From a phage, in NCBI GenBank assembly GCA_011884725.1, contig GCA_011884725.1_3919.1: a stretch of 64,000 nucleotides of DNA; one strand, given 5' to 3'. The position numbers were made by a program, and so were the translations under genes. Below are positions 3 through 22,967 of this stretch, one piece after another. Position 1 is the stretch's first letter, and every line of letters begins with the position of its first letter. The notes under the pieces were generated by a model. That model saw only the letters and a list, made by a program, of their open reading frames with translations. It had not been told where the DNA came from and did no database searches.

Positions 3-527
3 AACCTATATACACAGTTGGATGTTGGGAAGTGTGCATCATACCGATACTTAGTGGAGTCACTAGAAAAACTCCGTAAATTTTGCTGGATGCACAACAT
101 TCGTAAGATTGGTTTACCCATGATTGGTGCAGGTATCGGTGGTTTAGACGCACAAGCTGTGAAAAGCCTCATTAATAGCGTTATGTACAACGTTGATGTG
201 TACCTATACGTCTATGATGAAGCAATGGCAACTGTAGTTACCCCTAAGTATGCCACCTCAGCACCACAATTCTATGATGGTGTCGTGCTAAGTGACGGTA
301 AGTCTAACCATGTTACCCTCTATCAGCTTGTTGATGGTAAGGTCGAGGCTAGTTACCCTCTGGTTAGTGAGATGGGTATGTGTAATAGTGAAATGTTCTC
401 AATTGACCCGTTTGGTAGATACGAAGGGGTGTTCTTTGATAGCTACCCAGCAGCATACATCTACACAACAAATCAGGATGAAGTTCACTACTTGCTGTAT
501 TCTAAAAAGTTCAAATTCATAAACTAA
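3..527 (+). CDS. macro-domain-like protein, 5' end probably cut by window edge
   Basis: Frame open to window start (listed TTG start at 18 is probably internal). Motif LEKLRKF..NIRKIGLPMIGAGIGGLD resembles the macro-domain phosphate-binding loop (cf. IAFPAISTGVYG). Confidence 0.4.
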   Translation, partial: NLYTQLDVGKCASYRYLVESLEKLRKFCWMHNIRKIGLPMIGAGIGGLDAQAVKSLINSVMYNVDVYLYVYDEAMATVVTPKYATSAPQFYDGVVLSDGKSNHVTLYQLVDGKVEASYPLVSEMGMCNSEMFSIDPFGRYEGVFFDSYPAAYIYTTNQDEVHYLLYSKKFKFIN

Positions 528-923
528 TTAGTGCTTCACAGCACCTATAATTAATCTAAGAAGGCCGCCTAACCCATTGAAAAATTTAAGGTAAGGCAGC
601 CTTTTTCATTTTCAATTTGTGCAGGTAGCTGTATAGGTCTGCACAGGTGTCTCAAAAAATCTCATCGCCGGATAGAAAAATCATTTTCAAAACGTGCAGA
701 CTCCGCTCAGGTCGGGCAAGAAAAATCATTTTAGAATTGTGCAGGTAGGTTTTTATGGGGAGCCAGACCAACCCCTCTCCCCCTATTACTCCCCCTCTCC
801 CCAAAAGTCAAGAGAAAAATTTGTAGCGGATTGAAAAATAATTCTTGATTTGTGTTCTGTTTTGTGGTAGTCGTGTGCGCACGTTTCATTACAGTTTTTC
901 CAAAAATATTTTTAAAATTTTTC

Positions 924-952
924 TTGACTCTTTGAACGGGGTTATCTAGTAT
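924..952 (+). promoter_or_regulatory. sigma70-like promoter of early gene array
   Basis: TTGACT (924-929), 17-nt spacer, TAGTAT (947-952), directly upstream of the first conserved leader module. Confidence 0.5.
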
Positions 953-956
953 TTGC

Positions 957-1015
957 ATCAACGGGGAGGGAATGACCTTCCCCACTAAATAAAGTCCTAA
1001 ACTGGAGATTCAAAA
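957..1015 (+). repeat. leader module A copy 1 (5' hairpin + RBS)
   Basis: ATCAACGGGGAGGGAATGACCTTCCCCACTAA..CTGGAGATTCAAAAATG; hairpin 963-983; near-identical copies before six genes. Confidence 0.7.
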
Positions 1016-1399
1016 ATGGCATACCGTGCACCTAAATTCATCAACAAAGACAACTTTCGCAACGCACTGGAGAAGTCACTTGATGAGAATTTTAAAGGTA
1101 ACGTTATTGTTGTTCACTCATTTAATTTCAAGTATGATATCAATGGGAATAAAATCAACCATTACACGGCAACAATGCTAGATGGTACTCTTTCAAGTGA
1201 AAAAGCCATTTTACATGCACTTGCTGGACGTGGTAAAAACCTGATAAGATGCGATAAGAGACGTTATCAGGGTGGCGCATATGGTTACGATGATGCTGTT
1301 TATCATCTTGAAAATATGGGCTATCAAGTAGAAAAAGCTGGAGTGTCTCAAATAATTGGTAGTGATGGTTACGTAACTATCTTCAAAATTAACAAATAA
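1016..1399 (+). CDS. hypothetical early protein
   Basis: 127-aa ORF, ATG preceded by conserved GGAGATTCAAAA RBS of module A. Confidence 0.7.
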   Translation: MAYRAPKFINKDNFRNALEKSLDENFKGNVIVVHSFNFKYDINGNKINHYTATMLDGTLSSEKAILHALAGRGKNLIRCDKRRYQGGAYGYDDAVYHLENMGYQVEKAGVSQIIGSDGYVTIFKINK

Positions 1400-1484
1400 A
1401 GTACTTTACAGGGGGCTTATAGTTCGATAAAGTAAGCCCCAGATAAAGAGCTTTACCACTAAATCCTAAATTGGAGATTCAAAA
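1400..1484 (+). repeat. leader module B copy 1 (stem-loop + RBS)
   Basis: Hairpin GGGGCTTA..TAAGCCCC (1412-1440) then AGATAAAGAGCTTTACCACTAAATCCTAAATTGGAGATTCAAAAATG; four copies in window. Confidence 0.7.
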
Positions 1485-1775
1485 ATGGCTACTATCAAAA
1501 ACGTTGTAATCCCTGTAAAAACTCGTGATGACGCTCGCATCATGGCGAAAAAGTTAGGCGGGAAAGTGGTTGACAACGGAAAACAATCTGCTGTAAGATG
1601 GGGTGTGAAGGCTGATAAACAGTTGAAGTTAAAAAATTCACCAATAAATCTTTTTACATGTGTAAACACTATCGGAAAGACAAATGTATACACGAAAAAG
1701 GCATATATTAGACGCGTAGCCTTAACATCTCCAACTCGTACAATGAGAAGTCATGCAAAGCTGAAAATTAACTGA
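1485..1775 (+). CDS. hypothetical early protein
   Basis: 96-aa ORF behind module B RBS. Confidence 0.7.
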   Translation: MATIKNVVIPVKTRDDARIMAKKLGGKVVDNGKQSAVRWGVKADKQLKLKNSPINLFTCVNTIGKTNVYTKKAYIRRVALTSPTRTMRSHAKLKIN

Positions 1776-1777
1776 TA

Positions 1778-1863
1778 AAGTACTTTACAAGGGGCTTAAA
1801 AGTTGATACCTTAAGCCCCAGATAAAGAGCTTTACCACTAAATCCTAAACTGGAGATTCAAAA
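1778..1863 (+). repeat. leader module B copy 2
   Basis: Hairpin GGGGCTTAA..TTAAGCCCC (about 1791-1819) plus conserved RBS region. Confidence 0.7.
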
Positions 1864-2160
1864 ATGAAATTATCAAATAAAGTTCGTGAAAATCTAAGCA
1901 AATTACTCAACAAAATTGATTTCATTGAAACATCAAGAAATAGCCATGATGTTATGGAATGGTTACACGGCAAAATAAAAGGTCGTCGTGTAGTGATTTG
2001 CTTATGGAATAGTTGCAGGGAGTATAAAAAACCTGTATTGCAAGTCAATATCTATGATGATAATCTTAAAAGTCCTGTCAAATCTAAAAGCGATTTACTA
2101 GATTCTTATGAGATAACTGTAAATGGCAAAGTGTCACGTAAAGAGGAAGCACCATGTTAA
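1864..2160 (+). CDS. hypothetical early protein
   Basis: 98-aa ORF behind module B. Confidence 0.7.
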   Translation: MKLSNKVRENLSKLLNKIDFIETSRNSHDVMEWLHGKIKGRRVVICLWNSCREYKKPVLQVNIYDDNLKSPVKSKSDLLDSYEITVNGKVSRKEEAPC

Positions 2161-2486
2161 TGACTGGTATCACTGCAATCATTGCCATTTTCGCGCTCTA
2201 TAAGGCATATAAAGCCTATAATCTAGCAAATAAGGCAATCACACAACAGGTTAGTAATAGCCTTGTAATGAGCTTTCTAGAGCGGTTGAGCGATGAACAA
2301 TTAAAGCGGTTAGAAATGAGCTTCAGATTCAGGGCGAGAACTTATCAAATCAGCGACATTTTCAAAGATGATTTTCAATTAGTCGATGATTATAATTCTC
2401 TGATAAATGCTTTAAATATTAGTGACTTAAAAGACTATCATACTGTAATTGTTCAAGAGTTGAGCAAACGAAAACAAAACTGTTGA
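2154..2486 (+). CDS. hypothetical membrane protein
   Basis: 110-aa ORF, hydrophobic N-terminus (MLMTGITAIIAIFALY), start overlaps previous stop. Confidence 0.6.
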   Translation: MLMTGITAIIAIFALYKAYKAYNLANKAITQQVSNSLVMSFLERLSDEQLKRLEMSFRFRARTYQISDIFKDDFQLVDDYNSLINALNISDLKDYHTVIVQELSKRKQNC

Positions 2487-2511
2487 CACTGATTTTTAGA
2501 TAGATTAAATT
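2483..2511 (+). promoter_or_regulatory. sigma70-like promoter
   Basis: TTGACA (2483-2488), 17-nt spacer, TAAATT; identical sequence recurs at 3347-3375. Confidence 0.55.
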
Positions 2512-2515
2512 ACAC

Positions 2516-2575
2516 ATCAACGGGGAGGGAATGACCTTCCCCACTAAGTAAAGTCCTTAAACTAGGAGATTCAAA
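2516..2575 (+). repeat. leader module A copy 2
   Basis: Same 5' hairpin (2522-2542) and RBS as copy 1. Confidence 0.7.
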
Positions 2576-2848
2576 ATGTATACTACTAACAACGGTCGCA
2601 CTTTAAATGTCACTCTACGTCACTATGTCGACGGTGTGATGCACTTTGAGGATTTACAGGCTGAGCAACATATCTTAAATTGGCAAGTCGCAGGACTCCA
2701 AAAAACTGCTACCGGATACGGCAAAAAGATTCCAACTAGCTGGAAAGTTCACTATGAAGGCCGTTTGCGCAGAATTTATCAGGATGTATGTAACAATAGC
2801 ACATCAAGTTACATCATAGTAAAAGGTAAAAAACTGCATTTAGTATAA
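2576..2848 (+). CDS. hypothetical early protein
   Basis: 90-aa ORF behind module A. Confidence 0.7.
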   Translation: MYTTNNGRTLNVTLRHYVDGVMHFEDLQAEQHILNWQVAGLQKTATGYGKKIPTSWKVHYEGRLRRIYQDVCNNSTSSYIIVKGKKLHLV

Positions 2849-2849
2849 A

Positions 2850-2933
2850 GTACTTTACAGGGGGCTTATTAGTCTGTACAGTAAGCCCCAGATAAAGAGC
2901 TTTACCACTCAATCCTAAATTGGAGATTCTAAA
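2850..2933 (+). repeat. leader module B copy 3
   Basis: Hairpin about 2861-2889 plus conserved RBS region. Confidence 0.7.
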
Positions 2934-3338
2934 ATGACTATTAATAATCGTGAGTTGTCAATCTTAAAAGCACGTTTAACCGTTAATCGAATCAATGTTA
3001 TTACATCATCAGCACCGGATGAAACATTGCACAACATTATCGGAAAGATTCAAAGCGTTATCTTAGACGTTGAAAACGTAAAAAACTCATTGGCTGACGT
3101 TGCAGCAGGTATCACGCTAGACGGTGCACAATATGAAATGGCCGACATGTTAGGCAAATCTAAGGTAATGAATAAAGAGTTAGACTTGAAAATGTTTAGA
3201 TTTGCCGTGAAAGTGTGGCTATCTGTTGAGTATGATGCTAATTTTGCAATCGCTGATTTCTTTGCCACTTGGTTACAACGTAATTTGGCAAATCATGACT
3301 TTCGTGACATCTGCGACGCAATTTATGCAGAACTCTAA
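2934..3338 (+). CDS. hypothetical early protein
   Basis: 134-aa ORF behind module B. Confidence 0.7.
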   Translation: MTINNRELSILKARLTVNRINVITSSAPDETLHNIIGKIQSVILDVENVKNSLADVAAGITLDGAQYEMADMLGKSKVMNKELDLKMFRFAVKVWLSVEYDANFAIADFFATWLQRNLANHDFRDICDAIYAEL

Positions 3339-3346
3339 AAATTTTA

Positions 3347-3375
3347 TTGACACTGATTTTTAGATAGATTAAATT
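3347..3375 (+). promoter_or_regulatory. sigma70-like promoter (duplicate of 2483-2511)
   Basis: TTGACACTGATTTTTAGATAGATTAAATT. Confidence 0.55.
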
Positions 3376-3377
3376 AC

Positions 3378-3439
3378 ACATCAACGGGGAGGGAATGACC
3401 TTCCCCACTAAGTAAAGTCCTTAAACTAGGAGATTCAAA
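3378..3439 (+). repeat. leader module A copy 3
   Basis: Hairpin 3385-3405 plus RBS. Confidence 0.7.
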
Positions 3440-3637
3440 ATGGCTATTATCAACGGTTTAACCATTGAAACCACGCACATCAAAGACATTAAAGTTGGTG
3501 ATGTAGTTCTTTCCCACGGCGTAGAAAAAACAGTCACTGCAAAGGGTATCAAAGATGATTCTTTCATGGGTAGAACTCTCTTCGGTGATTCTTATTGCTT
3601 AGGTTATCTTGCAGTTTTAAAAGTTGTCAAAAATTAA
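3440..3637 (+). CDS. hypothetical early protein
   Basis: 65-aa ORF behind module A. Confidence 0.65.
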   Translation: MAIINGLTIETTHIKDIKVGDVVLSHGVEKTVTAKGIKDDSFMGRTLFGDSYCLGYLAVLKVVKN

Positions 3638-3639
3638 CT

Positions 3640-3730
3640 GATAAAGTACTTTACAAGGGGTTTATAGTTCGATAAAGTAAGCCCCAGATAAAGAGCTTTA
3701 CCACTAAATCCTTAAACTAGGAGATTCAAA
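3640..3730 (+). repeat. leader module B copy 4
   Basis: Hairpin GGGGTTTA..TAAGCCCC (3657-3685); a C-to-T change gives a G.U pair, consistent with an RNA stem. Confidence 0.7.
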
Positions 3731-4273
3731 ATGAAATGCTTTCACGGTACTACTCAAGAAAACTTTATCAACCTGATTAATAACGGTGATAAACCATCAG
3801 GTGTATGGAATTGTTCGGATATGGACGGCAATTTTTACGTGTACCCAGAAAATAAACTCTATGGTGATGATGAGGAAGAGATAGCATCGGAAGGTATCCA
3901 GCAAGCTCTAGGAAATGCCACTATCACGGCAGCTTTTCAGATGAAAACTCAAAATATTGTTATCTTAGAACTTGACATTCCAGAGGATGAGCTAAATGAT
4001 GATTATTCTTGTGATAACATGTCAAATATAGCAAGCTTTACAGAGTACTTTGATGTAAATTGGATTAAAAAGGTCTATACAACAGAGTTCAACGCTATGT
4101 ATTCACCTTTTTGTCTCCCTTCACTGGATAACCCAAATTTAAATTATCTTGATGAAACATTGGAGCTACTTGCTAAAAGTATCCAACAATCCGACAGTAT
4201 TCAGGTTTTTTGTGACATCATGGATACACTGACAGAAAACATTGTAGAGAGTGATTTAAAGGTCTTTTTCTAA
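3731..4273 (+). CDS. hypothetical early protein
   Basis: 180-aa ORF with conserved RBS. Confidence 0.7.
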   Translation: MKCFHGTTQENFINLINNGDKPSGVWNCSDMDGNFYVYPENKLYGDDEEEIASEGIQQALGNATITAAFQMKTQNIVILELDIPEDELNDDYSCDNMSNIASFTEYFDVNWIKKVYTTEFNAMYSPFCLPSLDNPNLNYLDETLELLAKSIQQSDSIQVFCDIMDTLTENIVESDLKVFF

Positions 4274-4305
4274 AAACCTATACATTCACCTTATAAACAC
4301 TGATT

Positions 4306-4326
4306 AACCCCTTACAGGGGCTTTTA
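4306..4326 (+). terminator. possible intrinsic terminator
   Basis: CCCCT-TAC-AGGGG stem followed by CTTTT. Confidence 0.4.
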
Positions 4327-4339
4327 GAGGGCTTAAATC

Positions 4340-4573
4340 ATGCTTACAACCATTTATCTCATCCTTTCTATCTGTAGCGGTCATTCATGTGACTTTAAAG
4401 GGCTTGAAGAGTTTACAGGAAGTAAAGAAAATGCTATTCAGGTTTGCCAGATAGCAAGACAAGACTATCCCGCCAGTGATGATATACAATGCTACTTTAA
4501 GACAGAAGATGAAGAAGGAATCTATTTCGACAGTGTTGATGGTCAATATGAAATTATCATTGAAAAAGACTAG
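4340..4573 (+). CDS. hypothetical protein
   Basis: 77-aa ORF; RBS GAGGG upstream. Confidence 0.6.
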   Translation: MLTTIYLILSICSGHSCDFKGLEEFTGSKENAIQVCQIARQDYPASDDIQCYFKTEDEEGIYFDSVDGQYEIIIEKD

Positions 4574-4603
4574 ACAAGCCTGATAAAAGTCTGTAAATTA
4601 CAC

Positions 4604-4663
4604 ATCAACGGGGAGGGAATGACCTTCCCCACTAAATAAAGTCCTAAACTGGAGATTCTAAAA
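4604..4663 (+). repeat. leader module A copy 4
   Basis: Hairpin 4610-4630 plus RBS; preceded by TAAATT -10 element. Confidence 0.7.
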
Positions 4664-5005
4664 ATGGCTTATGTAACCGTAATTACTGATAAAGAGAATT
4701 CATCTTGGTCAACTCAGGTTAGTGACAAGATGTCACCTATGCAGTGCCTAAAATACTTTGAGCAGTGGAATAAAGGCGAGGATGTAAGCCCATTTCAAGT
4801 GATGCAGGTTATCCATGTAGATAACGAAGGGAATAAAACGGTTTTAAATAGTGAGTACTACGCAAGCCGTTTTGAAACTAGAAGTAAAACAATGAAGCTT
4901 TTACGTGAATCCGGTTATGCCCATATCGCCGCGCTAATCTGGGATGACCTGCTAAAAAGTCAGCGTATCAGCTATGTAAAACCTGAAAAAATATTCATCA
5001 GTTAA
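4664..5005 (+). CDS. hypothetical early protein
   Basis: 113-aa ORF behind module A. Confidence 0.7.
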   Translation: MAYVTVITDKENSSWSTQVSDKMSPMQCLKYFEQWNKGEDVSPFQVMQVIHVDNEGNKTVLNSEYYASRFETRSKTMKLLRESGYAHIAALIWDDLLKSQRISYVKPEKIFIS

Positions 5006-5037
5006 TCAATAACTTATAAAAAACTTTTAAAAAAGTG

Positions 5038-5066
5038 TTGACAACACCCCTTGACAATAGTACATT
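5038..5066 (+). promoter_or_regulatory. promoter with tandem TTGACA boxes
   Basis: GTTGACAACACCCCTTGACAATAGTACATT: TTGACA at 5038 and 5051, TACATT 17 nt after the first. Confidence 0.45.
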
Positions 5067-5206
5067 TGTTCGAGGGGGTTTATCTAAAAGGGATTCACTT
5101 AAAAGATTCTTTATAGATAAACTTAAAAAATTGCTTGCAATCATCTTCCAAAAACTTTATAGTTTATCTCAAGCAATAATGCTTTCCTAAACTGGAGATT
5201 CAAAAA

Positions 5207-5737
5207 ATGAACAAGTTCAAAGCTATCAACTACATTCGCTCAAATAGTGTCATGTCTAAGCCTGTTAAGGATACCTACGAATTCCGTTGCAATGGTGAAC
5301 ACTTTGCTACCATCACCAAATCAAACAACGGGGCTTATTATATCCATCGTCGTAATGTTTCTACGGTTGTAGTTTCTAACTTTATGCAAGCTGTAGCGGA
5401 ACTCCTCCCGCTCTTCTTAGAAAAGTATGCCGTACAGTGTGAAAGTGTTCGTGAATGCACTAAAACAGTGTTAAACGGTTATCGTATGGCTTACGAGCGC
5501 TCTTTAAAGAATCTCAATAAATACTACAAAGCACCGGAAGGCACTTCATCCACAGCCTACGGGGTAGGGGGCTTCAATGTCAGCCTTTACGAAGTGGAAG
5601 AAATCGAGCTTTATGACCATCGCCCAAATGGTTACGCTAAGACACTGGGAGAGGGGTTAATGCTGAATATCAAGAACTTAGAAAAAACTTTAAGAGAAAT
5701 TGAAAAAGATATTGACGAGACAATCAAAAGTCTGTAA
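5207..5737 (+). CDS. hypothetical protein
   Basis: 176-aa ORF; RBS CTGGAGATTCAAAAAATG. Confidence 0.7.
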   Translation: MNKFKAINYIRSNSVMSKPVKDTYEFRCNGEHFATITKSNNGAYYIHRRNVSTVVVSNFMQAVAELLPLFLEKYAVQCESVRECTKTVLNGYRMAYERSLKNLNKYYKAPEGTSSTAYGVGGFNVSLYEVEEIELYDHRPNGYAKTLGEGLMLNIKNLEKTLREIEKDIDETIKSL

Positions 5738-5743
5738 ATTATC

Positions 5744-5802
5744 AATCAACGGGGAGGGAATAACCTTCCCCACTAAGTAAAGTCCTAAACTGGAGATTCA
5801 AA
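5744..5802 (+). repeat. leader module A copy 5
   Basis: Hairpin GGGGAGGGAATAACCTTCCCC (5751-5771) plus RBS. Confidence 0.7.
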
Positions 5803-6066
5803 ATGGAACACGTAGAACTGACCACACTCTTACAAATCGCAACCGACAAGGAAGACGTAGCATTATTTCACCGTATAGAGAGTGATTTGTTCAATGGTGA
5901 AATCATCAAAGAATCTTACGAAGTTGTCGGATTCAAAGATGGTAAAGCATTTGGCTTTTTTGACCTCGACAAAAGCAAAGCGGTTACAAAGTACGATGTT
6001 CTATCTTGTGAGATTCTTACAAAATACAACGAAAAAAGGCTTGCAACCTACGCCAACATGCAGTAA
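5803..6066 (+). CDS. hypothetical early protein
   Basis: 87-aa ORF behind module A. Confidence 0.7.
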   Translation: MEHVELTTLLQIATDKEDVALFHRIESDLFNGEIIKESYEVVGFKDGKAFGFFDLDKSKAVTKYDVLSCEILTKYNEKRLATYANMQ

Positions 6067-6072
6067 ATTACT

Positions 6073-6132
6073 AATCAACGGGGAGGGATGACCTCCCTAC
6101 TAAACAAAGTCCTAAACTGGAGAATCTAAATT
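6073..6132 (+). repeat. leader module A copy 6 (variant)
   Basis: Variant hairpin GGGAGGGATGACCTCCCT with compensatory changes, then conserved RBS. Confidence 0.65.
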
Positions 6133-6381
6133 ATGTCAACTATCCGCGTAACTGTTAATGCTTATGGCTGCCACCAACTTGATGCAAAATTCGATATCGG
6201 TGGAACAGATAACACCTTTGACCTTATCAAAATGCTGATTCAGCAGGTGATACCAGATTATAACCCTACTGATGACTTCTGGAAAGATGCCGTAAAAGAA
6301 GCCATAAACGAGGAATCTCACTACCATTATTGGGGTGACTTGATTATCTCTCTGTACTACAGCAAACAAGGTTACAACTAA
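6133..6381 (+). CDS. hypothetical early protein
   Basis: 82-aa ORF behind module A variant. Confidence 0.7.
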   Translation: MSTIRVTVNAYGCHQLDAKFDIGGTDNTFDLIKMLIQQVIPDYNPTDDFWKDAVKEAINEESHYHYWGDLIISLYYSKQGYN

Positions 6382-6391
6382 TCGACGCAGC

Positions 6392-6445
6392 GGGGCTAAA
6401 TAGCCCCAGATACCTGAAAAGCTCCTTCTCATAGGGGCTTTTTTA
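6392..6445 (+). terminator. terminator(s) closing the early plus-strand array
   Basis: Hairpin GGGGCTAAATAGCCCC (6392-6407) and GGGGC + TTTTTT (6434-6445). Confidence 0.55.
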
Positions 6446-6449
6446 CGTC

Positions 6450-8010
6450 TATAAAGAGACTCTATACAGTCCCTTTCCTTTCCTTCCTAGAATCTATCCC
6501 ACTAATTCGATAGAGACTATCTCATACCTTAAAAAGCAATAACTCTATAGTCTACTCTATAACCTCTTATCAAATCAACTTAAATATAAGCCCATAACCC
6601 GAAAGGGAAGGGCAACCACTAAAACGCTCTATAAAGCTCTATAACAGCCTTATCAATCTAACTTAAGCAATCATATTAACCTACTCTAAAAAGCCCTTTA
6701 TAGAGCTTCCCAGAGCCTTAAAAGAATCTTATAAGGGTGTAAGCTTTATTATCTCGTTAGCTATCTTGTGAACTACTAAAAAGGGCTTGTTAGTGTCTTA
6801 AAAGTATGTTATAGGGGCTATAAAGTTACTTCAAAGTTACGTAAAAGGGGCTATAAAGTTACGTAAATGCTAGCCCCCTTAACATTTTCTTAACAATTTC
6901 TTAACAATCCCTACATAGTTATGCTTTTAAGGCACTTGTTAGAGACTTGTTAGCCCCTTGTTAAATCTCTGTTAAGACCACGTAAAAGCCTTGTAAGAGT
7001 CTTTAGCATAGCCTTTAAAGCCTCTGTAAAGCCCTATAAAGAGGTGTCTGTATAGTTGGGGTGTAATTACTAGGAAGAGACTTAAAAGAGCTTACAAGGA
7101 GCTATAGAGAGCTTTTAAGAGGGCTATTTAGAGAATCACTAAGAGGGAAAGGGAACGATAAGAAAAGAGATAGTGACCATGTTAATAGCTTGTTAAAAAG
7201 ATTAAACACTTGTTAGGAACTTGTTAATTATCCCTACAAAATAACTCTTTAAAATTAACTTGTTAGCTCTTGTTAGTCATCTGTTAAGATTCTGTAAAGC
7301 CTATGTATCAACTGTTAAGAAACTGTTACACCCTTGTTAGTTCTGTTAAGAATCTGTTAAGACCTCTGAAGAGATGTTAAGAAGATGTGAGAACTGTTAA
7401 GGAATTGTTAATGATATTTTAAAATTTTGCAAAGTACTTGTAAGGGAGTTGTTAAGGGCTACCAAGCAGATATACATCTTCTACAGATATTTTTCAGTCC
7501 CTTCAAAGACCCTAAAAAATGACTTGATAGTCCTATTTTATAAAAATTTTAAAATTCTGAATAATTACCTATACAGTCTTTTAAAAATACAGGTAATAAC
7601 AGGCTTATAAGATACCTTGTTAGTACCGTGTTAGACCTTGTGAGATAAGGTCTGTAAAGATATTCCTGTTAAGTTTGTTAAAACAGTCTATATAGAGGCT
7701 TAGTATTTCCTAGTGAACACCTATAGAGGGTAACATAGCTAACCTAGAGATTAAGAGGTGTATAGGAGCTTCTAAGAGGGTGTAGAGAGATGGTTAAGGT
7801 GATTGTATAGGTTGTTAAGAAGGCTTGTTAGAAGAGTGTTTAGAAGGGCTATACAGAGGGGCTATTAAGACCACTAGATAGATACTAAGATACTATATAG
7901 TACTATATAACTATATAGAGAGTAAGATTAAGAAGGTTGTTAAGAAGGGTAGATATTTTATTCACATATGATGGTGACCCAGCGGTTGGGACAACCGATA
8001 AATTTTATAA
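6450..8010. repeat. ORF-free region with dense phased short repeats (iteron-like)
   Basis: No ORF of 60 aa or more in any frame; more than 30 copies of (C)TTGTTA(A/G) and CTGTTAAG, several CTATAAAG, tandem GGGGCTATAAAGTTAC x2 (6817, 6846); spacing in 7261-7410 is multiples of about 10-11 bp. Confidence 0.75.
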
Positions 8011-17961: not shown

Positions 17962-18038
17962 CTCTGTTTAGCTCAGCTTGGTAGAGCGTTCCGTTTGGGG
18001 CGGTAAGGCCGGAGGTTCAAGTCCTCCAACAGAGACCA
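17962..18038 (+). tRNA. tRNA-Pro (anticodon TGG)
   Basis: 7-bp acceptor CTCTGTT/AACAGAG, T-arm GGAGGTTCAAGTCCTCC, anticodon loop TTTGGGG, encoded CCA. Confidence 0.75.
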
Positions 18039-18045
18039 AATTAAT

Positions 18046-18123
18046 GTTCCAGTAGACAAAATGGTAAAGTCACCACTCTTTCAAAGTGGATATCTGAGGG
18101 TTCAAATCCCTTCTGGAACGCCA
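18046..18123 (+). tRNA. tRNA-Glu (anticodon TTC)
   Basis: Acceptor GTTCCAG/CTGGAAC, anticodon stem CCACT/AGTGG, loop CTTTCAA, T-loop TTCAAAT, CCA. Confidence 0.75.
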
Positions 18124-18126
18124 GTT

Positions 18127-18205
18127 TTGACAGAAGACCAATTACAGCAAACTTAATCTTATTCATCTGAAGGTAAATCGGACAAAGAAGAGATTTGGTC
18201 TGGTC
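18127..18205 (+). ncRNA. inter-tRNA structured element E1
   Basis: CAGAAGACC-box, helix AGACCAA (18135-18141) / TTGGTCT (18195-18201), TTACAGCAAA box inside. Confidence 0.5.
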
Positions 18206-18214
18206 ATTAAGAAT

Positions 18215-18291
18215 TGCGGGTATAGAGAAAGGGCGTCTCACATGTCTCATTAGCATGGTATCGGCAGGTTCGACTCCTGCACCCGCCTCCA
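18215..18291 (+). tRNA. tRNA-Met-like (anticodon CAT) with 1:72 mismatch
   Basis: Anticodon stem CATGT/GCATG, loop CTCATTA, T-arm GCAGGTTCGACTCCTGC, 3' ACCCGCC-T-CCA; 5' end TGCGGGT leaves position 1 unpaired. Confidence 0.6.
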
Positions 18292-18294
18292 AAT

Positions 18295-18365
18295 TTACAG
18301 AAGACCGTTTACAGCAAAATTGAATGAAATTTTTAGCGGAAAAATTGAAAGATACGGTCTGGTAA
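18295..18365 (+). ncRNA. inter-tRNA structured element E2
   Basis: Helix AGACCGT (18302-18308) / ACGGTCT (18354-18360); compensatory to E1; TTACAGCAAAA box. Confidence 0.5.
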
Positions 18366-18375
18366 TACTAAACAT

Positions 18376-18449
18376 GGTTAGGAAGCACATAAGGTATGTG
18401 CGGTCGCCTGTTAAGCGAATGGCACAGGGTTCGAATCCCTGACTAACCG
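18376..18449 (+). tRNA. tRNA-Asn (anticodon GTT)
   Basis: Acceptor GGTTAGG, D-stem GCAC/GTGC, anticodon loop CTGTTAA, T-arm CAGGGTTCGAATCCCTG; no encoded CCA. Confidence 0.65.
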
Positions 18450-18461
18450 CAAAATTGAAAT

Positions 18462-18549
18462 GTGTCGTTATCCCGTAGATGGTAGCGGTGGGGACTGTAA
18501 ATCCCTTGTCATTGAGACTCGGTAGGTTCGACTCCTACACGGCACACCA
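18462..18549 (+). tRNA. tRNA-Tyr (anticodon GTA), long variable arm
   Basis: Acceptor GTGTCGT/ACGGCAC, anticodon loop CTGTAAA, long variable arm, T-arm GTAGGTTCGACTCCTAC, CCA. Confidence 0.7.
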
Positions 18550-18554
18550 ATAAA

Positions 18555-18631
18555 GGCTATGTAGTTTAACTGGAGAAAATACTCCCCTGTCACGGGAGAT
18601 GATGTGAGTTCAAGTCTCATCGTAGCCGCCA
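18555..18631 (+). tRNA. tRNA-Asp (anticodon GTC)
   Basis: Acceptor GGCTATG/CGTAGCC, anticodon stem CTCCC/GGGAG, loop CTGTCAC, T-loop TTCAAGT, CCA. Confidence 0.75.
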
Positions 18632-18685
18632 AATTATAATAAGTATTTCAAAATGATGTTTTGAGAGGGCTATTTAGCCCCTCCC

Positions 18686-18716
18686 TTAAAGAGTTCTTAC
18701 GAGTATTCTTTAAAGG
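18686..18716 (+). ncRNA. hairpin with conserved TTCTTACGAG loop, copy 1
   Basis: TTAAAGAGTTCTTACGAGTATTCTTTAAAGG; second copy at 22027-22056 has a different but still complementary stem. Confidence 0.45.
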
Positions 18717-18795
18717 AGCAGAAGACCAAATACAGCAAGAATGTATGATATTTTCAAGCCAATCCAATTTTGAAAAAATTTAAAACTTGGTCTGG
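18717..18795 (+). ncRNA. inter-tRNA structured element E3
   Basis: CAGAAGACC box, helix AGACCAA (18723-18729) / TTGGTCT (18787-18793), ATACAGCAAG box. Confidence 0.5.
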
Positions 18796-18804
18796 CTCAA
18801 CAAA

Positions 18805-18939
18805 TTTACAGAAGACCGTTTACAGCAAAACTTAAACAATCTATTTCTCGGTAAAGAAAAGGCGAAGGTTCGATTCCTTCACTCGGCAGATGTCGAGTTG
18901 GTGTAATGGTAGCACTTAAGATGATAAACAACGGTCTGG
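18805..18939 (+). ncRNA. element E4 enclosing a tRNA-like module
   Basis: Helix AGACCGTT (18813-18820) / AACGGTCT (18930-18937); inside: T-arm GAAGGTTCGATTCCTTC, hairpin ACTCGGC-AGAT-GTCGAGT, D-arm-like GTGTAATGGTAGCAC. The order is 3'-half before 5'-half. Confidence 0.45.
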
Positions 18940-18940
18940 T

Positions 18941-19084
18941 AATTATCTTTGTAGATAAGTTATTAAGCTTACCTGTGAGTATGCGACCACAAAGGGTGAA
19001 AGGGTAAATTCTAGATTTAAACCCAAAAAGGCACATCGCTACAGACCTTAAGCAAGTCTGGGTAGCTTATCTACAAAGATAATT
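18941..19084 (+). ncRNA. structured RNA closed by a 19-bp perfect helix
   Basis: AATTATCTTTGTAGATAAG (18941-18959) is the exact reverse complement of CTTATCTACAAAGATAATT (19066-19084); inner hairpins include CAGAC/GTCTG. Confidence 0.5.
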
Positions 19085-19088
19085 TAAT

Positions 19089-19164
19089 GGAAGTGTAGCA
19101 GAATGGTGATGCGGCAGACTTTTAATCTGACAGGCGATGGGTTCGAATCCCTCCACTTCTACCA
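19089..19164 (+). tRNA. tRNA-Lys (anticodon TTT)
   Basis: Acceptor GGAAGTG/CACTTCT (G1.U72), anticodon loop CTTTTAA, T-loop TTCGAAT (weak T-stem), CCA. Confidence 0.65.
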
Positions 19165-19168
19165 ATAT

Positions 19169-19245
19169 GGTTCAGTCGCAGATAAGGTAATGCAAGGGTC
19201 TCATAAGCCCTATGAATGTGGGTTCGATTCCCATCTGAACCTCCA
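19169..19245 (+). tRNA. tRNA with CAT anticodon (elongator Met or Ile2-type)
   Basis: Acceptor GGTTCAG/CTGAACC fully paired, anticodon stem AGGGT/GCCCT, loop CTCATAA, T-loop TTCGATT, CCA. Confidence 0.65.
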
Positions 19246-19246
19246 A

Positions 19247-19322
19247 GCTGGTATAGTTAAGAAGGTTATAACACTCCCCTGATAAGGGAACATCGGTGGT
19301 TCGATTCCACCTACCAGTACCA
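19247..19322 (+). tRNA. tRNA-Ile (anticodon GAT)
   Basis: Acceptor GCTGGTA/TACCAGT, anticodon loop CTGATAA, T-arm GGTGGTTCGATTCCACC, CCA. Confidence 0.7.
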
Positions 19323-19337
19323 ATTTCAATAAAGTTG

Positions 19338-19366
19338 TTGACATTGAGATGTGACTACTTTATAGT
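19338..19366 (+). promoter_or_regulatory. internal promoter within tRNA array
   Basis: TTGACA (19338-19343), 17-nt spacer, TATAGT (19361-19366). Confidence 0.6.
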
Positions 19367-19568
19367 AACCTTAGTTTTCGTTGCGTAGCGTCTATTTTGC
19401 AAATTTAAAATAAATGCAAACGACAATGTTTTTCTGGCAGTAGCTTGATAGGCTAAACACCAGTGAGGTCTTCCAATCCCTCATCAAAGAATTTGGCGTA
19501 CTCGCCCACGGTATGATTAATAAGGTGGGCATCTTTAAGGGCTTTCTAAGAGAGTCTTTAAAGATAAT

Positions 19569-19645
19569 GCACCCTTAGTTCAATTGGATAGAGCAACGGT
19601 CTTCTAAATCGTTAGTTACAGGTTCGAATCCTGTAGGGTGTACCA
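19569..19645 (+). tRNA. tRNA-Arg (anticodon TCT)
   Basis: Acceptor GCACCCT/AGGGTGT, D-arm TAGTTCAATTGGATAGAGC, anticodon loop CTTCTAA, T-loop TTCGAAT, CCA. Confidence 0.75.
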
Positions 19646-19787
19646 AATAGTTAGCAGATTACTTAGACGGCCTTAGCGGGTCTTCCTGTAGGGAGGTGGT
19701 CTGTATCTCATGTTTTCCAGAACATGTAAATAATCTGAGAAGAAGCTTGACAGTGTTGAGATAACAGGGTAAGCTTCGAATTATAAT

Positions 19788-19870
19788 ATGGGACGATGTT
19801 AAGACTCTAAGGCATGAGCAACGGCCTCCAAAACCGTTTCAAAGGGGTTCAACTCCTCCGTCCCATGCCA
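19788..19870 (+). tRNA. atypical tRNA (anticodon probably CCA, Trp?)
   Basis: Acceptor ATGGGAC/GTCCCAT, T-loop TTCAACT, CCA; anticodon stem AACGG/CCGTT encloses 9 nt (CCTCCAAAA); D region is 4-8 nt longer than usual. Confidence 0.45.
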
Positions 19871-19883
19871 AAGTCTTATTAGG

Positions 19884-19971
19884 GGTAGGTAGCGGCTAAT
19901 GGTAGCCAAACTGTCTTGAAAACAGTTGCCACTGTAGAGATACGGTGAGGGTTCGACTCCTTTACTTACCG
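19884..19971 (+). tRNA. tRNA-Ser (anticodon TGA), long variable arm
   Basis: Acceptor GGTAGGT/ACTTACC, anticodon stem ACTGT/ACAGT, loop CTTGAAA, long variable arm, T-loop TTCGACT. Confidence 0.65.
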
Positions 19972-20126
19972 CCTAATAAGATTTACTCCGTCCATGCTTG
20001 TTCGCATTGTCGGTTTATCCCTCGTGTATTGTCGTACACTGTCAAAGCACCTAGTAGGTGTCACGGAGAAGAGATAATATCAAGCTCTCCAAAGGTTCTA
20101 GTCACCGGATTAAACAAGACTATGCA

Positions 20127-20151
20127 AAGACCTATTTAGGTCTTTTTAGAG
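20127..20151 (+). terminator. intrinsic terminator inside tRNA array
   Basis: AAAGACC-TATTTA-GGTCTTT followed by TTTAG. Confidence 0.5.
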
Positions 20152-20227
20152 GGCTTCTAAGGTTATTAGTCGCTTGTTGTGGAACCTTGTTGCTTAGGTT
20201 CTTAGAAGTTCTCTAAAAAGATTTAAT

Positions 20228-20305
20228 GGGAGATTGACGGTAATTGGTAAACCTACCATCCTTAGAAGTTGGTGTTTGAGGGTTCGAATCCCTTGTCTCC
20301 TACCA
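20228..20305 (+). tRNA. tRNA, class I shape, anticodon TAG (Leu?)
   Basis: Acceptor GGGAGAT/GTCTCCT, anticodon loop CTTAGAA, 5-nt variable loop, T-loop TTCGAAT, A73, CCA. Confidence 0.5.
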
Positions 20306-20312
20306 AATTAAT

Positions 20313-20388
20313 GCAGGTGTAGCAAAATGGTTATGCGGCTGACTCTTAATCAGTAAGACGATGGGTTCAATTCCCTCCACCTGTACCA
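20313..20388 (+). tRNA. tRNA-Lys (anticodon CTT)
   Basis: Acceptor GCAGGTG/CACCTGT, anticodon stem GCTGA/TCAGT, loop CTCTTAA, T-loop TTCAATT, CCA. Confidence 0.6.
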
Positions 20389-20394
20389 AACATT

Positions 20395-20470
20395 GGGGAT
20401 GTAGTTTACATGGTTAAAACATAAGTTTTGCAAACTTAAGTACAGGGTTCAATTCCCTGCTTCTCCACCA
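20395..20470 (+). tRNA. tRNA-Cys (anticodon GCA)
   Basis: Anticodon stem AAGTT/AACTT, loop TTGCAAA, T-arm CAGGGTTCAATTCCCTG, CCA. Confidence 0.65.
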
Positions 20471-20476
20471 ATTAGT

Positions 20477-20551
20477 GCATCCATAGTTTAAACGGGAAAA
20501 TTACAGTCTTCCAAACTGAGGTTGAGGGTTCGATTCCCTCTGGATGCTCCA
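20477..20551 (+). tRNA. tRNA-Gly (anticodon TCC)
   Basis: Acceptor GCATCCA/TGGATGC, anticodon loop CTTCCAA, T-loop TTCGATT, CCA. Confidence 0.65.
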
Positions 20552-20557
20552 AACAAT

Positions 20558-20634
20558 GCTGCTTTCGTATAATTGGCTATTACACATCCCTTGTAAGGAT
20601 GGAAATGCAGGTTCGAGTCCTGTGAGCAGCACCA
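20558..20634 (+). tRNA. tRNA-Thr (anticodon TGT)
   Basis: Acceptor GCTGCTT/GAGCAGC, anticodon stem CATCC/GGATG, loop CTTGTAA, T-loop TTCGAGT, CCA. Confidence 0.7.
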
Positions 20635-20635
20635 A

Positions 20636-20730
20636 TTCAGAGGTCAAGTGAAAGACCGCTTTGAGTCAACTGAAGACCGTAACAAATACCACGGAGTTGA
20701 GTTAGCGGCACAACTTCAGACCTCTTTCAT
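20636..20730 (+). ncRNA. structured spacer element between tRNA-Thr and tRNA-Val
   Basis: Closing helix CAGAGGTC (20638-20645) / GACCTCTT (20722-20729); contains a GAAGACCGT box as in E2/E4; no T-loop. Confidence 0.4.
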
Positions 20731-20805
20731 ACTCGCTTAGTTTATATGGTAAAACATCACCCTTACAAGATGAAGAAAAAGGTTCAAGTCCTTTAGTGAG
20801 TACCA
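20731..20805 (+). tRNA. tRNA-Val (anticodon TAC)
   Basis: Acceptor ACTCGCT/AGTGAGT, anticodon loop CTTACAA, T-arm AAAGGTTCAAGTCCTTT, CCA. Confidence 0.6.
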
Positions 20806-20806
20806 T

Positions 20807-20884
20807 GTTCCAGTATCCCAATTGGCAGAGGATGCAAGCTCAAACCTTGTATTAGTGACGGTTCGAATCCGTCTTGGAACACCA
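20807..20884 (+). tRNA. tRNA, class I shape, anticodon CAA (Leu?)
   Basis: Acceptor GTTCCAG/TTGGAAC, anticodon stem GCAAG/CTTGT, loop CTCAAAC, T-arm GACGGTTCGAATCCGTC, A73, CCA. Confidence 0.5.
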
Positions 20885-20889
20885 ATTTT

Positions 20890-20965
20890 GCAGGATTAGT
20901 TCAAATGGAAAGAGCAACAGTCTACGAAGCTGTTAATAGGGGTTCGAATCCCTTATCCTGCGCCA
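20890..20965 (+). tRNA. tRNA-Arg (anticodon ACG)
   Basis: Acceptor GCAGGAT/ATCCTGC, D-stem GTTC/GAGC, anticodon stem ACAGT/GCTGT, loop CTACGAA, T-loop TTCGAAT, CCA. Confidence 0.75.
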
Positions 20966-20982
20966 GATAAAAAGGTGATACT

Positions 20983-21225
20983 ATGCAAACATTAACAGTA
21001 GTTGAACATGAAAACTGTGAGAGTATTGAGTTTGTCAGGGTCATTGGTGTTGAACACCACATTTTCTTAAAAGTGGGATACTTATGTGACCCCGCTAGAG
21101 TAGAAAGATTTATACGTGATTGTTTTGGTGGTAGACATCTGAAGAGTGTTATTTTTGAGACAGTTTTACCAGAAGGTTTAGAAACGAATAATAACATTTA
21201 CCTCCTTACGAGGATTAGACAATGA
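20983..21225 (+). CDS. hypothetical protein embedded in tRNA array
   Basis: 80-aa ORF; RBS AAAGGTGA 7 nt upstream of ATG. Confidence 0.5.
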   Translation: MQTLTVVEHENCESIEFVRVIGVEHHIFLKVGYLCDPARVERFIRDCFGGRHLKSVIFETVLPEGLETNNNIYLLTRIRQ

Positions 21226-21779
21226 GATACTTAAAGTATGCTTCATGGATTTTCTTAGCTTTGTTAGAGCCATTTGCAGCAATCTTAGCAGTTATCTTAG
21301 CACCTTTTGTAGTTCCATTCTACAGTGAGAAGAAAGGACACTTACCTTTCGGGTTCAGATGGATGGAGACATATGACAACCCAATTGATGGTGATGAAGG
21401 TCACGTTAAAAGATGGGCTAATATTAGATGGATTGGTAAACTAGGTGTCTACATGCAAAGAGTCGGATGGCTCTGGAGAAACAAAGCTTATAACTTCTCT
21501 TACCATGTATTAGGAAGAGATGTAAGAGATGTTACTAAGTGGAAAGGTAATATCAACGTAAGTTCTAACCCTGAAGATAATCAGACTGGTTATCTCCTAA
21601 TGTGGAACAGTAATGCTTGGGGATTATTCGCTTTTATCCCATCAATTAAAGTCTTCGGTAAACAGTTTTACTGGAGAATTTATGTTGGATGGAAACTTAA
21701 AAGTGTTGTCCCAGAAGAAAGAGCATTCTCAAGGGAAAGAGTTATGTTGGCATTCTTTATTCATCCACTGAGAAAGTAA
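21222..21779 (+). CDS. hypothetical membrane protein embedded in tRNA array
   Basis: 185 aa; N-terminal TM segment (WIFLALLEPFAAILAVILAPFVVPF); start overlaps previous stop; RBS GAGGA. Confidence 0.6.
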   Translation: MRYLKYASWIFLALLEPFAAILAVILAPFVVPFYSEKKGHLPFGFRWMETYDNPIDGDEGHVKRWANIRWIGKLGVYMQRVGWLWRNKAYNFSYHVLGRDVRDVTKWKGNINVSSNPEDNQTGYLLMWNSNAWGLFAFIPSIKVFGKQFYWRIYVGWKLKSVVPEERAFSRERVMLAFFIHPLRK

Positions 21780-21787
21780 AGATTTAA

Positions 21788-21863
21788 AGGGGATTAGTTT
21801 ACAAGGTTAAAACCTCGGTCTTTGAAATCGAAGAAGTTGGTTCAATTCCAACATCCCCCGCCA
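21788..21863 (+). tRNA. tRNA-Gln (anticodon TTG)
   Basis: Anticodon stem TCGGT/ATCGA, loop CTTTGAA, T-arm GTTGGTTCAATTCCAAC, 3' ATCCCCC-G-CCA; position 1 (A) unpaired with C72. Confidence 0.6.
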
Positions 21864-21865
21864 AT

Positions 21866-21944
21866 GCTCCATTACTCCAATTGGCAGAGAGGCCAGACTT
21901 AAAATCTGTGTTATGTATCGGTTCGAATCCGATATGGAGTACCA
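21866..21944 (+). tRNA. tRNA, class I shape, anticodon TAA (Leu?)
   Basis: Acceptor GCTCCAT/ATGGAGT, anticodon loop CTTAAAA, T-arm ATCGGTTCGAATCCGAT, A73, CCA. Confidence 0.5.
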
Positions 21945-21949
21945 AATTT

Positions 21950-22025: not shown

Positions 22026-22026
22026 C

Positions 22027-22132: not shown

Positions 22133-22138
22133 ATTTAT

Positions 22139-22214: not shown

Positions 22215-22230
22215 ATTTCAAAGGTGCTTA

Positions 22231-22965: not shown

Positions 22966-22967
22966 AT

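Follow-up and report, generated by a model that had tools for sequence, protein, structure and literature searches.

Repeated Leader Modules in a Cluster of Small Genes

A 64 kb window of phage DNA (64,000 nt of contig GCA_011884725.1_3919.1) carries a 5.5 kb cluster of small, co-oriented open reading frames (ORFs) of unknown function, adjoining the genome end. Ten of these ORFs are preceded by a conserved leader belonging to one of two families, module A (six copies) or module B (four copies), each of which fills the intergenic gap of about 90–105 nt in front of its gene (Table 1). The modules are restricted to this cluster. An initial annotation had reported six A and four B modules before ten early genes, and motif searches and alignments confirmed both the modules and these ten genes. 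It had overlooked an eleventh ORF (start 5207), which has the Shine–Dalgarno (SD) block common to the modules behind a different promoter, and two cluster ORFs without a module (starts 2154 and 4340).

The sequence from 500 to 6500 was compared by megablast with 50,697 phage records. It matched 259 of them, nearly all Escherichia, Salmonella, Shigella or Citrobacter phages of the Felix O1 group, and by these matches the window is assigned as a segment of a Felixounavirus genome (Felix O1/wV8-like; subfamily Ounavirinae). Among the best matches, wV8 showed 98% identity with about two thirds of the query covered, and vB_EcoM-Pr103Blw (hereafter Pr103Blw) 91% identity across 97% of it. The 581 bp direct terminal repeat annotated in Pr103Blw corresponds to 6873–7463 of the window (89% identity), so that the cluster, which is transcribed toward the genome end, stops about 420 bp short of the physical end. 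In the complete Pr103Blw genome (88.4 kb), 11 SD blocks, seven A cores and four B cores all lie on one strand between 81.9 and 87.1 kb. No Pfam family was found in the ten cluster proteins and their PHROGs matches are only to families of unknown function; the cluster therefore offers no candidate RNA-binding regulator.

Module A: A Predicted Promoter Followed by a Hairpin

The core of module A is the 30-mer CAACGGGGAGGGAATGACCTTCCCCACTAA, found without mismatch at 959, 2518, 3382 and 4606 and with one mismatch at 5747, zero copies being expected by chance. In the sixth copy the stem is symmetrically shortened (GGGGAGGGATGACCTCCCT). All six cores follow sigma-70-type hexamers (Table 1) separated by a 17 nt spacer that differs in sequence between copies. 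The -10 hexamer is followed by 7 nt ending in ATC, then by AAC and the hairpin, which ends 20 nt before GGAG. A transcript starting 7–8 nt past the -10, as predicted, would begin AACGGGG and carry an 8 bp hairpin (-15 kcal/mol) from nt 4. The initial annotation had likewise placed this hairpin right after the predicted start and 20 nt before a fixed ribosome-binding site.

From loci of about 25 related genomes, 139 A-type copies were collected. The spacer is 17 nt in 138 of them (16–18 nt was permitted), and the hexamers are very likely to be active host promoters. All 71 distinct leader variants fold with the hairpin at nt 4–5 of the predicted RNA, and they include unrelated stem sequences (GGGCAAGCAAGCCC, GGGGCAAGATAAAGCCCC and GGGAAACATCCC). 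The position and pairing of hairpin A are conserved and its sequence is not. Compared with mononucleotide shuffles of the hairpin segment, the median z-score was -4.6 (54 distinct variants). An extended stem around hairpin A was looked for and not found, folds of read-through RNA retaining only the 8 bp hairpin.

Module B: A Predicted Promoter Enclosed in a Probable Long Helix

Module B contains the sequence CCCCAGATAAAGAGCTTTACCACT, present in four exact copies (at 1437, 1816, 2886 and 3682). A promoter scan found TTTACA, 17 nt, and TAAAGT or TACAGT inside three of the four copies, and the fourth has TACCTT. The sample from relatives comprised 143 copies with 48 distinct hairpins, in which the hexamer 17 nt (rarely 18) past the invariant TTTACA is nearly always TAnnnT, as in TAAAGT, TATCTT, TAAGAT, TAGTAT, TATGAT, TACCTT and TACAGT. 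When 50 distinct sequences were aligned, TTTACA was invariant and the only invariant or near-invariant positions of the loop were T1, A2 and T6 of the hexamer, which is the signature of a -10 element. These hexamers, too, are likely to be active host promoters. Transcription is predicted to start at the A directly following CCCC; the distance from the -10 to the C-A step is 7 nt, as in module A, and the candidate 5′ end junction is CCCC^AGAUAAAG.

The loop and 3′ arm of the upper hairpin contain the -10 hexamer in every copy. Because the predicted start is downstream of the 5′ arm, RNA initiated at module B would lack the hairpin, which could form only in RNA read through from upstream. Hairpin B had at first been described as a leader element in front of the same ribosome-binding site as in module A. 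Both the hairpin and the site are real, and so is the G.U-compensated change in one copy (module B4), but the hairpin wraps a second promoter and tops a longer stem, and it would be missing from the 5′ leader of B-initiated mRNA.

Of the 48 distinct upper stems, 46 keep 7–11 consecutive pairs, and the median z-score against mononucleotide shuffles of the hairpin segment was -4.2 (48 distinct variants). In folds of the read-through RNA, all four copies form a helix of about 20 bp, capped by the upper stem. The element TAAAGUaCUUUA, at or adjoining the upstream stop codon and including part of the -35 hexamer, pairs with UAAAGaGCUUUA at +4 to +15; the result is a lower stem of 6 + 5 bp with a 1 × 1 loop, a 3 × 3 internal loop (CAG/AGA) and a G/C upper stem of 9 bp. 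Run unguided on 54 distinct B sequences, RNAalifold predicted the same extended structure. In the 54-sequence alignment 98.7% of cells in the extended stem are paired, slid registers reaching at most 62%, and the covariation score was reached by none of 500 shuffles. Pair 7–57 is G-C in 38 sequences and U-A in nine, pair 8–56 is U.G, C-G or U-A, and pair 5–59 is A-U or G.U. The exchange of G-C for U-A at 7–57 couples the left half of the 5′ element with the right half of the 3′ element, and therefore points to a long-range stem. Two separate palindromic operators (TAAAGtaCTTTA and TAAAGagCTTTA) were also considered and rejected, the G-to-T change being matched by C-to-A across the elements, not within one.

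An irregular helix of this kind could be an RNase III-type processing site, cut in the 3 × 3 internal loop of read-through RNA to give an upstream mRNA with a protective 3′ hairpin and a downstream 5′ end nearly identical to the start of the embedded promoter. The same arrangement of 6 + 5 + 9 bp with 1 × 1 and 3 × 3 loops is seen in the four copies and in the 54-sequence consensus, a compensatory change backs the lower stem, and the internal-loop bases CA/AGA are invariant. The upper stem also recurs, with AGATA and no promoter, at the end of the cluster, where it precedes a terminator and is conserved in 12 related loci, a hint that the stem itself may have a role in RNA. However, the -35 hexamer and the start site explain the invariance of CA/AGA equally well, the 9 bp upper stem is short for the usual distance from cut to loop, and hairpin A, with 8 bp, cannot be a substrate, so that only one of the two families would be explained. 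Processing by RNase III is, on balance, an unlikely account of module B.

Neither hairpin is followed by a T run, the tails being ACTAAATAAA for hairpin A and AGATAAAGAG for hairpin B, and both were rejected as intrinsic terminators; several other hairpins of the window have T-run tails. They could still act as attenuators or terminators that insulate each cassette from upstream read-through, as was first proposed for the PeSL stem-loops of T4-type phages, one of which (PeSL211/210) reduced lacZ expression as much as the rrnB T1 terminator (PMC2839356). Both hairpins are intercistronic and G/C-rich (-12 to -16 kcal/mol), and the ASO1A record labels hairpin A a 'rho-independent terminator' (WebGeSTer). 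Against attenuation stand the missing U tract, when true terminators of the window have T runs, the selected lower stem of module B, which makes a helix of about 20 bp and so exceeds typical terminators, and the position of hairpin A, which would also stop transcripts of its own promoter at about +25. Attenuation as the general explanation appears somewhat unlikely.

Selection on the Sense Strand and Distribution among Phages

Across about 280 copies from some 25–30 related genomes the hairpins are kept, with compensatory changes. Among the distinct variants, G.U pairs outnumber A.C mismatches by 38 to 0 in module B and by 29 to 2 in module A (67:2 in total), and the sense strand folds better than the antisense strand in 33 of 48 B variants and 46 of 54 A variants. 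The G.U excess and the better folding of the sense strand together indicate selection on that strand, most simply on RNA, and the view that both hairpins are maintained at the RNA level is supported.

The structures might instead act in DNA. In supercoiled or newly injected DNA, a sense-strand hairpin could extrude and present the non-template strand of the -10 as a single-stranded loop, giving a pre-melted promoter, and it might also, or alternatively, stimulate recombination. The location of the B -10 hexamer would suit this, and PeSL stem-loops lie mostly between the -35 and -10 or over the -10, with a crossover in RB49 mapped within the loop (PMC2839356). The 67:2 ratio means, however, that one strand folds well, unlike a symmetric cruciform, and hairpin A is downstream of its -10. 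Stems of 8–9 bp with 11 nt loops also extrude poorly. That the structures act in DNA and not in RNA is very unlikely.

BLAST searches with the modules alone found module B in 288 and module A in 246 of the 50,697 phage records. The B-positive records include the Citrobacter phages Mordin and Moogle, SUSP2 and 29 Erwinia phages, and the modules extend over four genera of Ounavirinae (Felixounavirus, Mooglevirus, Suspvirus and Kolesnikvirus). Apart from a few odd-named records, the names in these BLAST results listed only Ounavirinae hosts or genera (Escherichia, Salmonella, Shigella, Citrobacter, Erwinia, 'Felixounavirus'). In Erwinia phage Roscha1 (Kolesnikvirus), B-type copies have TTTACA-17-TAGTAT or TAATCT, and GGTG/CACC replaces GGGG/CCCC in the upper stem, a compensatory exchange, the promoter and lower stem being kept. 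Other intergenic gaps of Roscha1 carry different promoter-in-hairpin designs.

The Ribosome-Site Block

The SD block TCCTAAACTGGAGATTC occurs in eight copies (up to three mismatches), all within 995–6126 of the window, against 0.1 expected; the remaining copies are the allele CCTTAAACTAGGAG, which is two bases longer. GGAG is separated from the ATG by 7–10 nt, mostly 8. Among all copies collected the block has two alleles, CCT-AAAYT-GGAG (196 copies) and CCTT-AAAYT-AGGAG (107 copies), which are never mixed (examples in the window are 995–1007 and 2554–2568). Most folds predict a weak UCC(U)/(A)GGA mini-hairpin over part of the SD, which gains length through the paired one-base insertions, and Erwinia phages have CCUU-AUA-AAGG at the same position. 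As a case for a conserved structure this is a single event, and suggestive only.

Such uniform 5′ ends had been taken to suggest that the whole early set is co-regulated at the RNA level. The same kind of promoter, hairpin and SD with its spacer does precede each ORF, an arrangement suited to uniform expression; what finds little favour is a dedicated trans-acting regulator, either a translational repressor or a RegB-like endoribonuclease, for which the hairpins and the GGAG region would be operators. Such a regulator would account for very uniform leaders, with ACTAAnTAAAGTCCT, AGATAAAGAGCTTTACC and GGAG at fixed spacing in about 300 copies, for selection of the hairpins on the RNA-sense strand, and for the mini-hairpin with its paired indel. 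GGAG, as in the SD of the early mRNAs targeted by T4 RegB, is present in all copies. Hairpin A keeps its position and pairing but is free in the sequence of both stem and loop, which makes sequence-specific recognition by a repressor or nuclease unlikely, and hairpin B is upstream of its own predicted start. The annotation of the complete relative names no RegA/RegB-like protein and no other RNA-binding regulator, which is a weak test, most of its proteins being 'hypothetical'; the cluster proteins belong to no known family, and there is no Rfam match. Shared ancestry and cassette recombination explain the uniformity more simply, and a trans-acting regulator is quite improbable.

Modules as Cassette Boundaries

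The 303 proteins that start behind an SD block were clustered into 20 families, seven of which stand behind module A in some genomes and behind module B in others. The genes flanking the modules are mutually unrelated. When gene order was mapped, a shared backbone (b d i a c f h e g j l k) emerged in which each genome has or lacks whole cassettes, together with accessory cassettes (n, o, q and s) that occupy different places in different phages. The junctions between relatives are sequence-precise and fall in the shared 3′ block. In the window, for example, the A module after gene f drives h and is followed by a B module and gene e, and at two related loci (L033 and L035) that A module runs directly into e. 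Similarly, gene g is driven by an A module in the window, and in wV8 this A module instead drives an extra gene, q, after which come a B module and g. The first promoter of the cluster stays put, whichever of b, m or o is the first gene. Some modules are A/B chimeras with their junction in the common CCACTAAAT block, and some cassettes are empty, their SD and ATG running directly into the next module.

As read from these sequences, related phages differ by the precise gain, loss or swap of units made up of an ORF and its module. The uniformity of the leaders thus has a second cause, in that the modules appear as repeated recombination substrates for the exchange of ORF cassettes. That the repeats drive this shuffling by homologous recombination is likely. 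Strong concerted evolution of the B copies within genomes was considered as well and rejected, its signal being marginal.

The repeats might alternatively be neutral leftovers of recent tandem duplications without a function of their own. Modules A2 and A3 are 95% identical over 108 nt, and the copies are only loosely position-specific. This explanation is already contradicted by the persistence of the modules across four genera, by hexamers and stems that are fixed where spacers and loops are free, by the compensatory changes and by the mutually unrelated flanking genes, and can be given almost no weight.

Previous Records and Proposed Expression of the Cluster

The repeats themselves are already on record, in sources that give no cassette interpretation. 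Both sequences appear as direct repeats in the Felix O1 genome paper (Whichard et al. 2010, PMC3185647), one of 57 bp (CTTTACATGGGGCTTAAAAGTCTGTAAAGTAAGCCCCAGATAAAGAGCTTTACCACT) that corresponds to module B and one of 39 bp (TTGACACTGGTTTTTAGATAGATTAAATTACACATCAAC) that corresponds to the module A promoter. They are absent from the promoter list of that paper, which states that temporal regulation is unknown and that the phage encodes no RNA polymerase. In GenBank, the modules are marked DR_1 to DR_9 in the wV8 record, and A copies are labelled 'promoter' and 'terminator' by automatic predictors in the ASO1A record. The wV8 and VpaE1 papers do not discuss the repeats.

We consider it probable that both leader families are composite expression cassettes of the PeSL type which serve also as exchange points for ORFs. 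Between hairpin and SD, each has a leader that is short and fixed. The anatomy of the modules, their pattern of conservation, the selection on the sense strand and the cassette-wise polymorphism can be seen directly in the sequences. For the hairpins we infer roles in RNA. Host RNA polymerase would fire from all 10–11 promoters right after infection, producing nested, co-directional transcripts that end at terminators near 4320 and 6440. Hairpin A would be the 5′-terminal stem-loop of the primary transcript, with 3–4 unpaired nt ahead of it, and might shield the mRNA from 5′-end-dependent decay. A protective 5′ stem-loop was among the options raised in the initial annotation; a hairpin at about +4 makes it plausible for module A, and it does not fit module B. 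Even for hairpin A this role is put forward tentatively, the alternatives being an attenuator or something else. Module B would place its promoter within a stem of about 20 bp that forms in read-through RNA, where it could be an attenuator, a processing site or a protector of the 3′ end of the upstream cistron, and the next ORF would be transcribed afresh from the embedded promoter. In DNA, the roughly 100 bp repeats would serve as substrates for homologous recombination, by which small accessory early genes are shuffled.

Reverse transcription PCR of Felix O1 assigned ORFs 13, 16 and 20–22 of the homologous region to 5 min after infection (PMC3185647). Several points weigh against the cassette interpretation or limit it. 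In the same Felix O1 experiments, ORFs 14, 17, 19 and 23 of the cluster were maximal at 25 min, not at 5 min. A literature search for transcriptome or promoter work on Felixounavirus found none, and the promoters and RNA roles are predictions. Part of the promoter pattern was built into the regular expressions with which copies were collected. Double changes occur in only two of the 16 B pairs, and the covariation rests on few independent events, many copies being related by descent or conversion. B cores are hardly more similar within a genome (0.869) than between genomes before different genes (0.860), so that ongoing homogenisation is weak. Lastly, the lack of a U tract after either hairpin makes classical termination unlikely.

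A more elaborate, dual-route version for module B can be framed, in which RNase III or a comparable enzyme cleaves read-through RNA at the internal loop, no more than one or two bases from the start of the embedded promoter. Processing and fresh initiation would then yield the same downstream mRNA, and the mRNA upstream would retain a 3′ hairpin that protects it. In combination with module A, every small early gene would be autonomous wherever recombination drops it, which would amount to a promoter-carrying gene-cassette system in a virulent phage. We regard this version as decidedly unlikely.

Felix O1-like phages are widely used in Salmonella and Escherichia coli typing, biocontrol and therapy. 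The small early genes of the cluster are likely to have host-takeover or anti-defence functions. Interpreting the modules as cassettes accounts for strain differences in these genes, and supplies 10–11 candidate immediate-early promoters with defined predicted start sites.

Table 1. Positions of the leader modules and of associated hairpins in the window.
Feature	Position	Strand	-35	-10	Hairpin	ATG	Other
Module A1	924–1015	+	TTGACT 924–929	TAGTAT 947–952	963–983	1016	GGAG 1004–1007
Module B1	1397–1484	+	TTTACA 1405–1410	TAAAGT 1428–1433, in loop and 3′ arm	upper, 1412–1440	1485	lower-stem arms 1397–1408 / 1444–1455; predicted start A1441
Module B2	1776–1863	+	TTTACA 1784–1789	TACCTT 1807–1812	upper, 1791–1819 (9 bp)	1864	lower-stem arms 1776–1787 / 1823–1834
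Module A2	2483–2575	+	TTGACA 2483–2488	TAAATT 2506–2511	2522–2542	2576	
Module B3	2846–2933	+	TTTACA 2854–2859	TACAGT 2877–2882	upper, 2861–2889	2934	lower-stem arms 2846–2857 / 2893–2904
Module A3	3347–3439	+	TTGACA 3347–3352	TAAATT 3370–3375	3386–3406	3440	
Module B4	3642–3730	+	TTTACA 3650–3655	TAAAGT 3673–3678	upper, 3657–3685; C-to-T change giving a U.G pair	3731	lower-stem arms 3642–3653 / 3689–3700
Short intrinsic-terminator-like hairpin	4306–4325	+			CCCCT-TAC-AGGGG, then CTTTT		after 180-amino-acid ORF; annotated as terminator in wV8
Module A4	4571–4663	+	TAGACA 4571–4576	TAAATT 4594–4599	4610–4630	4664	
Degenerate module, eleventh ORF	5135–5206	+	TTGCAA (5135–5163 with 17 nt spacer and -10)	TATAGT	small and weak, AGCAAUAAUGCU, from 5172	5207	SD block 5185–5201
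Module A5	5712–5802	+	TTGACG 5712–5717	TAAATT 5735–5740	5751–5771 (loop AATAA)	5803	
Module A6	6041–6132	+	TTGCAA 6041–6046	TAAATT 6064–6069	shortened, 6080–6098	6133	
Cluster end	6391–6449	+			promoter-less B-type upper stem GGGGCTAAATAGCCCC with AGATACC, 6391–6415		intrinsic terminator 6416–6443, T run within and just beyond 3′ arm

Other Features of the Region

The gene of the eleventh ORF stands behind a full A module in relatives. Upstream of its degenerate module, at 5038–5077, is another sigma-70-like site (TTGACA, 17 nt, TACATT) whose -10 is surrounded by a stem-loop of opposite polarity (CCCCTT...GAGGGG). The next promoter, at 5135, follows without an intervening ORF, and the site could be an extra promoter for the gene at 5207 or for a short RNA. 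Of the two ORFs without a module, the one that begins at 2154 (110 amino acids) has its ATG overlapping the end of the preceding 98-amino-acid ORF (ATGTTAA, 2154–2160), which looks like translational coupling within one cassette.

The ORF directly upstream of the cluster (18–527) is the C-terminal part of a macro-domain protein, according to the Pr103Blw annotation; past it, at about 564–608, a terminator-like hairpin carries a T run. Between this terminator and the first module, in 600–760, are three copies (starts 607, 682 and 727) of a motif consisting of an A/T run, CATTTT, 4–6 nt and GTGCAG(GTAG), the first of which is within a 12 bp inverted repeat (615–648). Four copies are found at the equivalent place in Erwinia phage Roscha1 (locus L057, 2553–3013), so the motif is conserved across genera.

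Beyond the cluster, 6450–7600 is a gene-free region of more than 1 kb with dense short repeats (CTATAAAG, CTTGTTAG and TGTTAAG); as it contains the match to the direct terminal repeat, the window spans the collapsed genome terminus. A group of 24 tRNA genes lies on the + strand at 17962–23137. An Rfam scan of the whole window at gathering scores passed only tRNAs, and a permissive scan (E ≤ 5) of 500–7600 gave nothing relevant, only tRNAs and one chance snoRNA hit. In the Pr103Blw annotation (loci L002 and L059), a 98-amino-acid cluster protein is named 'tail sheath monomer' and a 67-amino-acid one 'prohead assembly scaffold protein'; such structural names on small cluster ORFs in GenBank are probably annotation-transfer errors.

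Comparison with Known Systems

N4-type hairpin promoters for virion RNA polymerase were considered as a model and dropped, the window being Felixounavirus DNA with clear sigma-70 hexamers; Felix O1, by its genome paper, encodes no RNA polymerase. The 5′ untranslated region of ompA is reportedly an example of the stabilising 5′-terminal stem-loops of E. coli mRNAs, as described by Emory, Bouvet and Belasco in 1992. Module A resembles it in having a stable hairpin a few nt from the predicted 5′ end whose position and pairing, not sequence, are conserved, and differs in that it recurs in front of many genes, serves as a recombination module as well, and has a start site that is predicted. For module B, the comparison is with the RNase III processing sites R0.3 to R1.3 said to lie between the T7 early genes, from the work of Dunn and Studier. 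The two are alike in having irregular intercistronic hairpins, about 20 bp long and interrupted by an internal loop, within co-directional early genes that the host polymerase transcribes. Module B differs by its internal promoter, a shorter upper stem and the lack of sequence similarity, and its cleavage is putative.

The closest parallel is with the PeSL cassettes of the T4-type phages RB49/phi1, PST and nt-1 (Arbiol et al. 2010, PMC2839356; Comeau et al. 2014, PMC4122927). A PeSL combines a stop codon lying within A/T-rich DNA with a strong sigma-70-like promoter, a polyG/polyC stem-loop that contains G-T pairs, an SD and an ATG; the stem-loop may also lie just after the -10, besides its more frequent positions given above (PMC2839356). 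PeSLs cluster among ORFans in hyperplastic regions, and indels end within them (PMC2839356). The modules described here have the same composite order, from a stop codon in A/T-rich DNA through sigma-70-like -35 and -10 hexamers with a stem-loop to the SD and ATG. Their stems likewise have G-run and C-run arms with G.U pairs, the B arms surrounding the -10 and hairpin A lying about 11 nt after it. They occur in many copies in a variable region of ORFs without known function, and indels or replacements between close relatives end in the motif.

There are also differences. The two systems share no sequence homology, and the phages here are Ounavirinae, not T4-like. The PeSL is a loose motif, whereas the modules form two discrete, highly conserved families with an SD block that is near-identical in all copies. 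Hairpin A is past the start site and hence part of the mRNA, and in module B a covarying lower stem puts the entire promoter inside a helix of about 20 bp. Only for PeSLs have promoter and terminator activity and mini-circles been demonstrated, the promoters of the modules being predictions. As the BLAST matches of the modules, a few odd-named records apart, are to Ounavirinae only, they are an analogue of the PeSL and not a homologue. Every feature of the PeSL at the sequence level is present, and on these features the modules are a new, independent member of this kind. PeSL-type shuffling beyond the T4-like phages would support the repeated evolution of portable regulatory cassettes in large virulent phages, and the modules would be compact, naturally insulated expression units whose boundaries are natural insertion sites for engineering.

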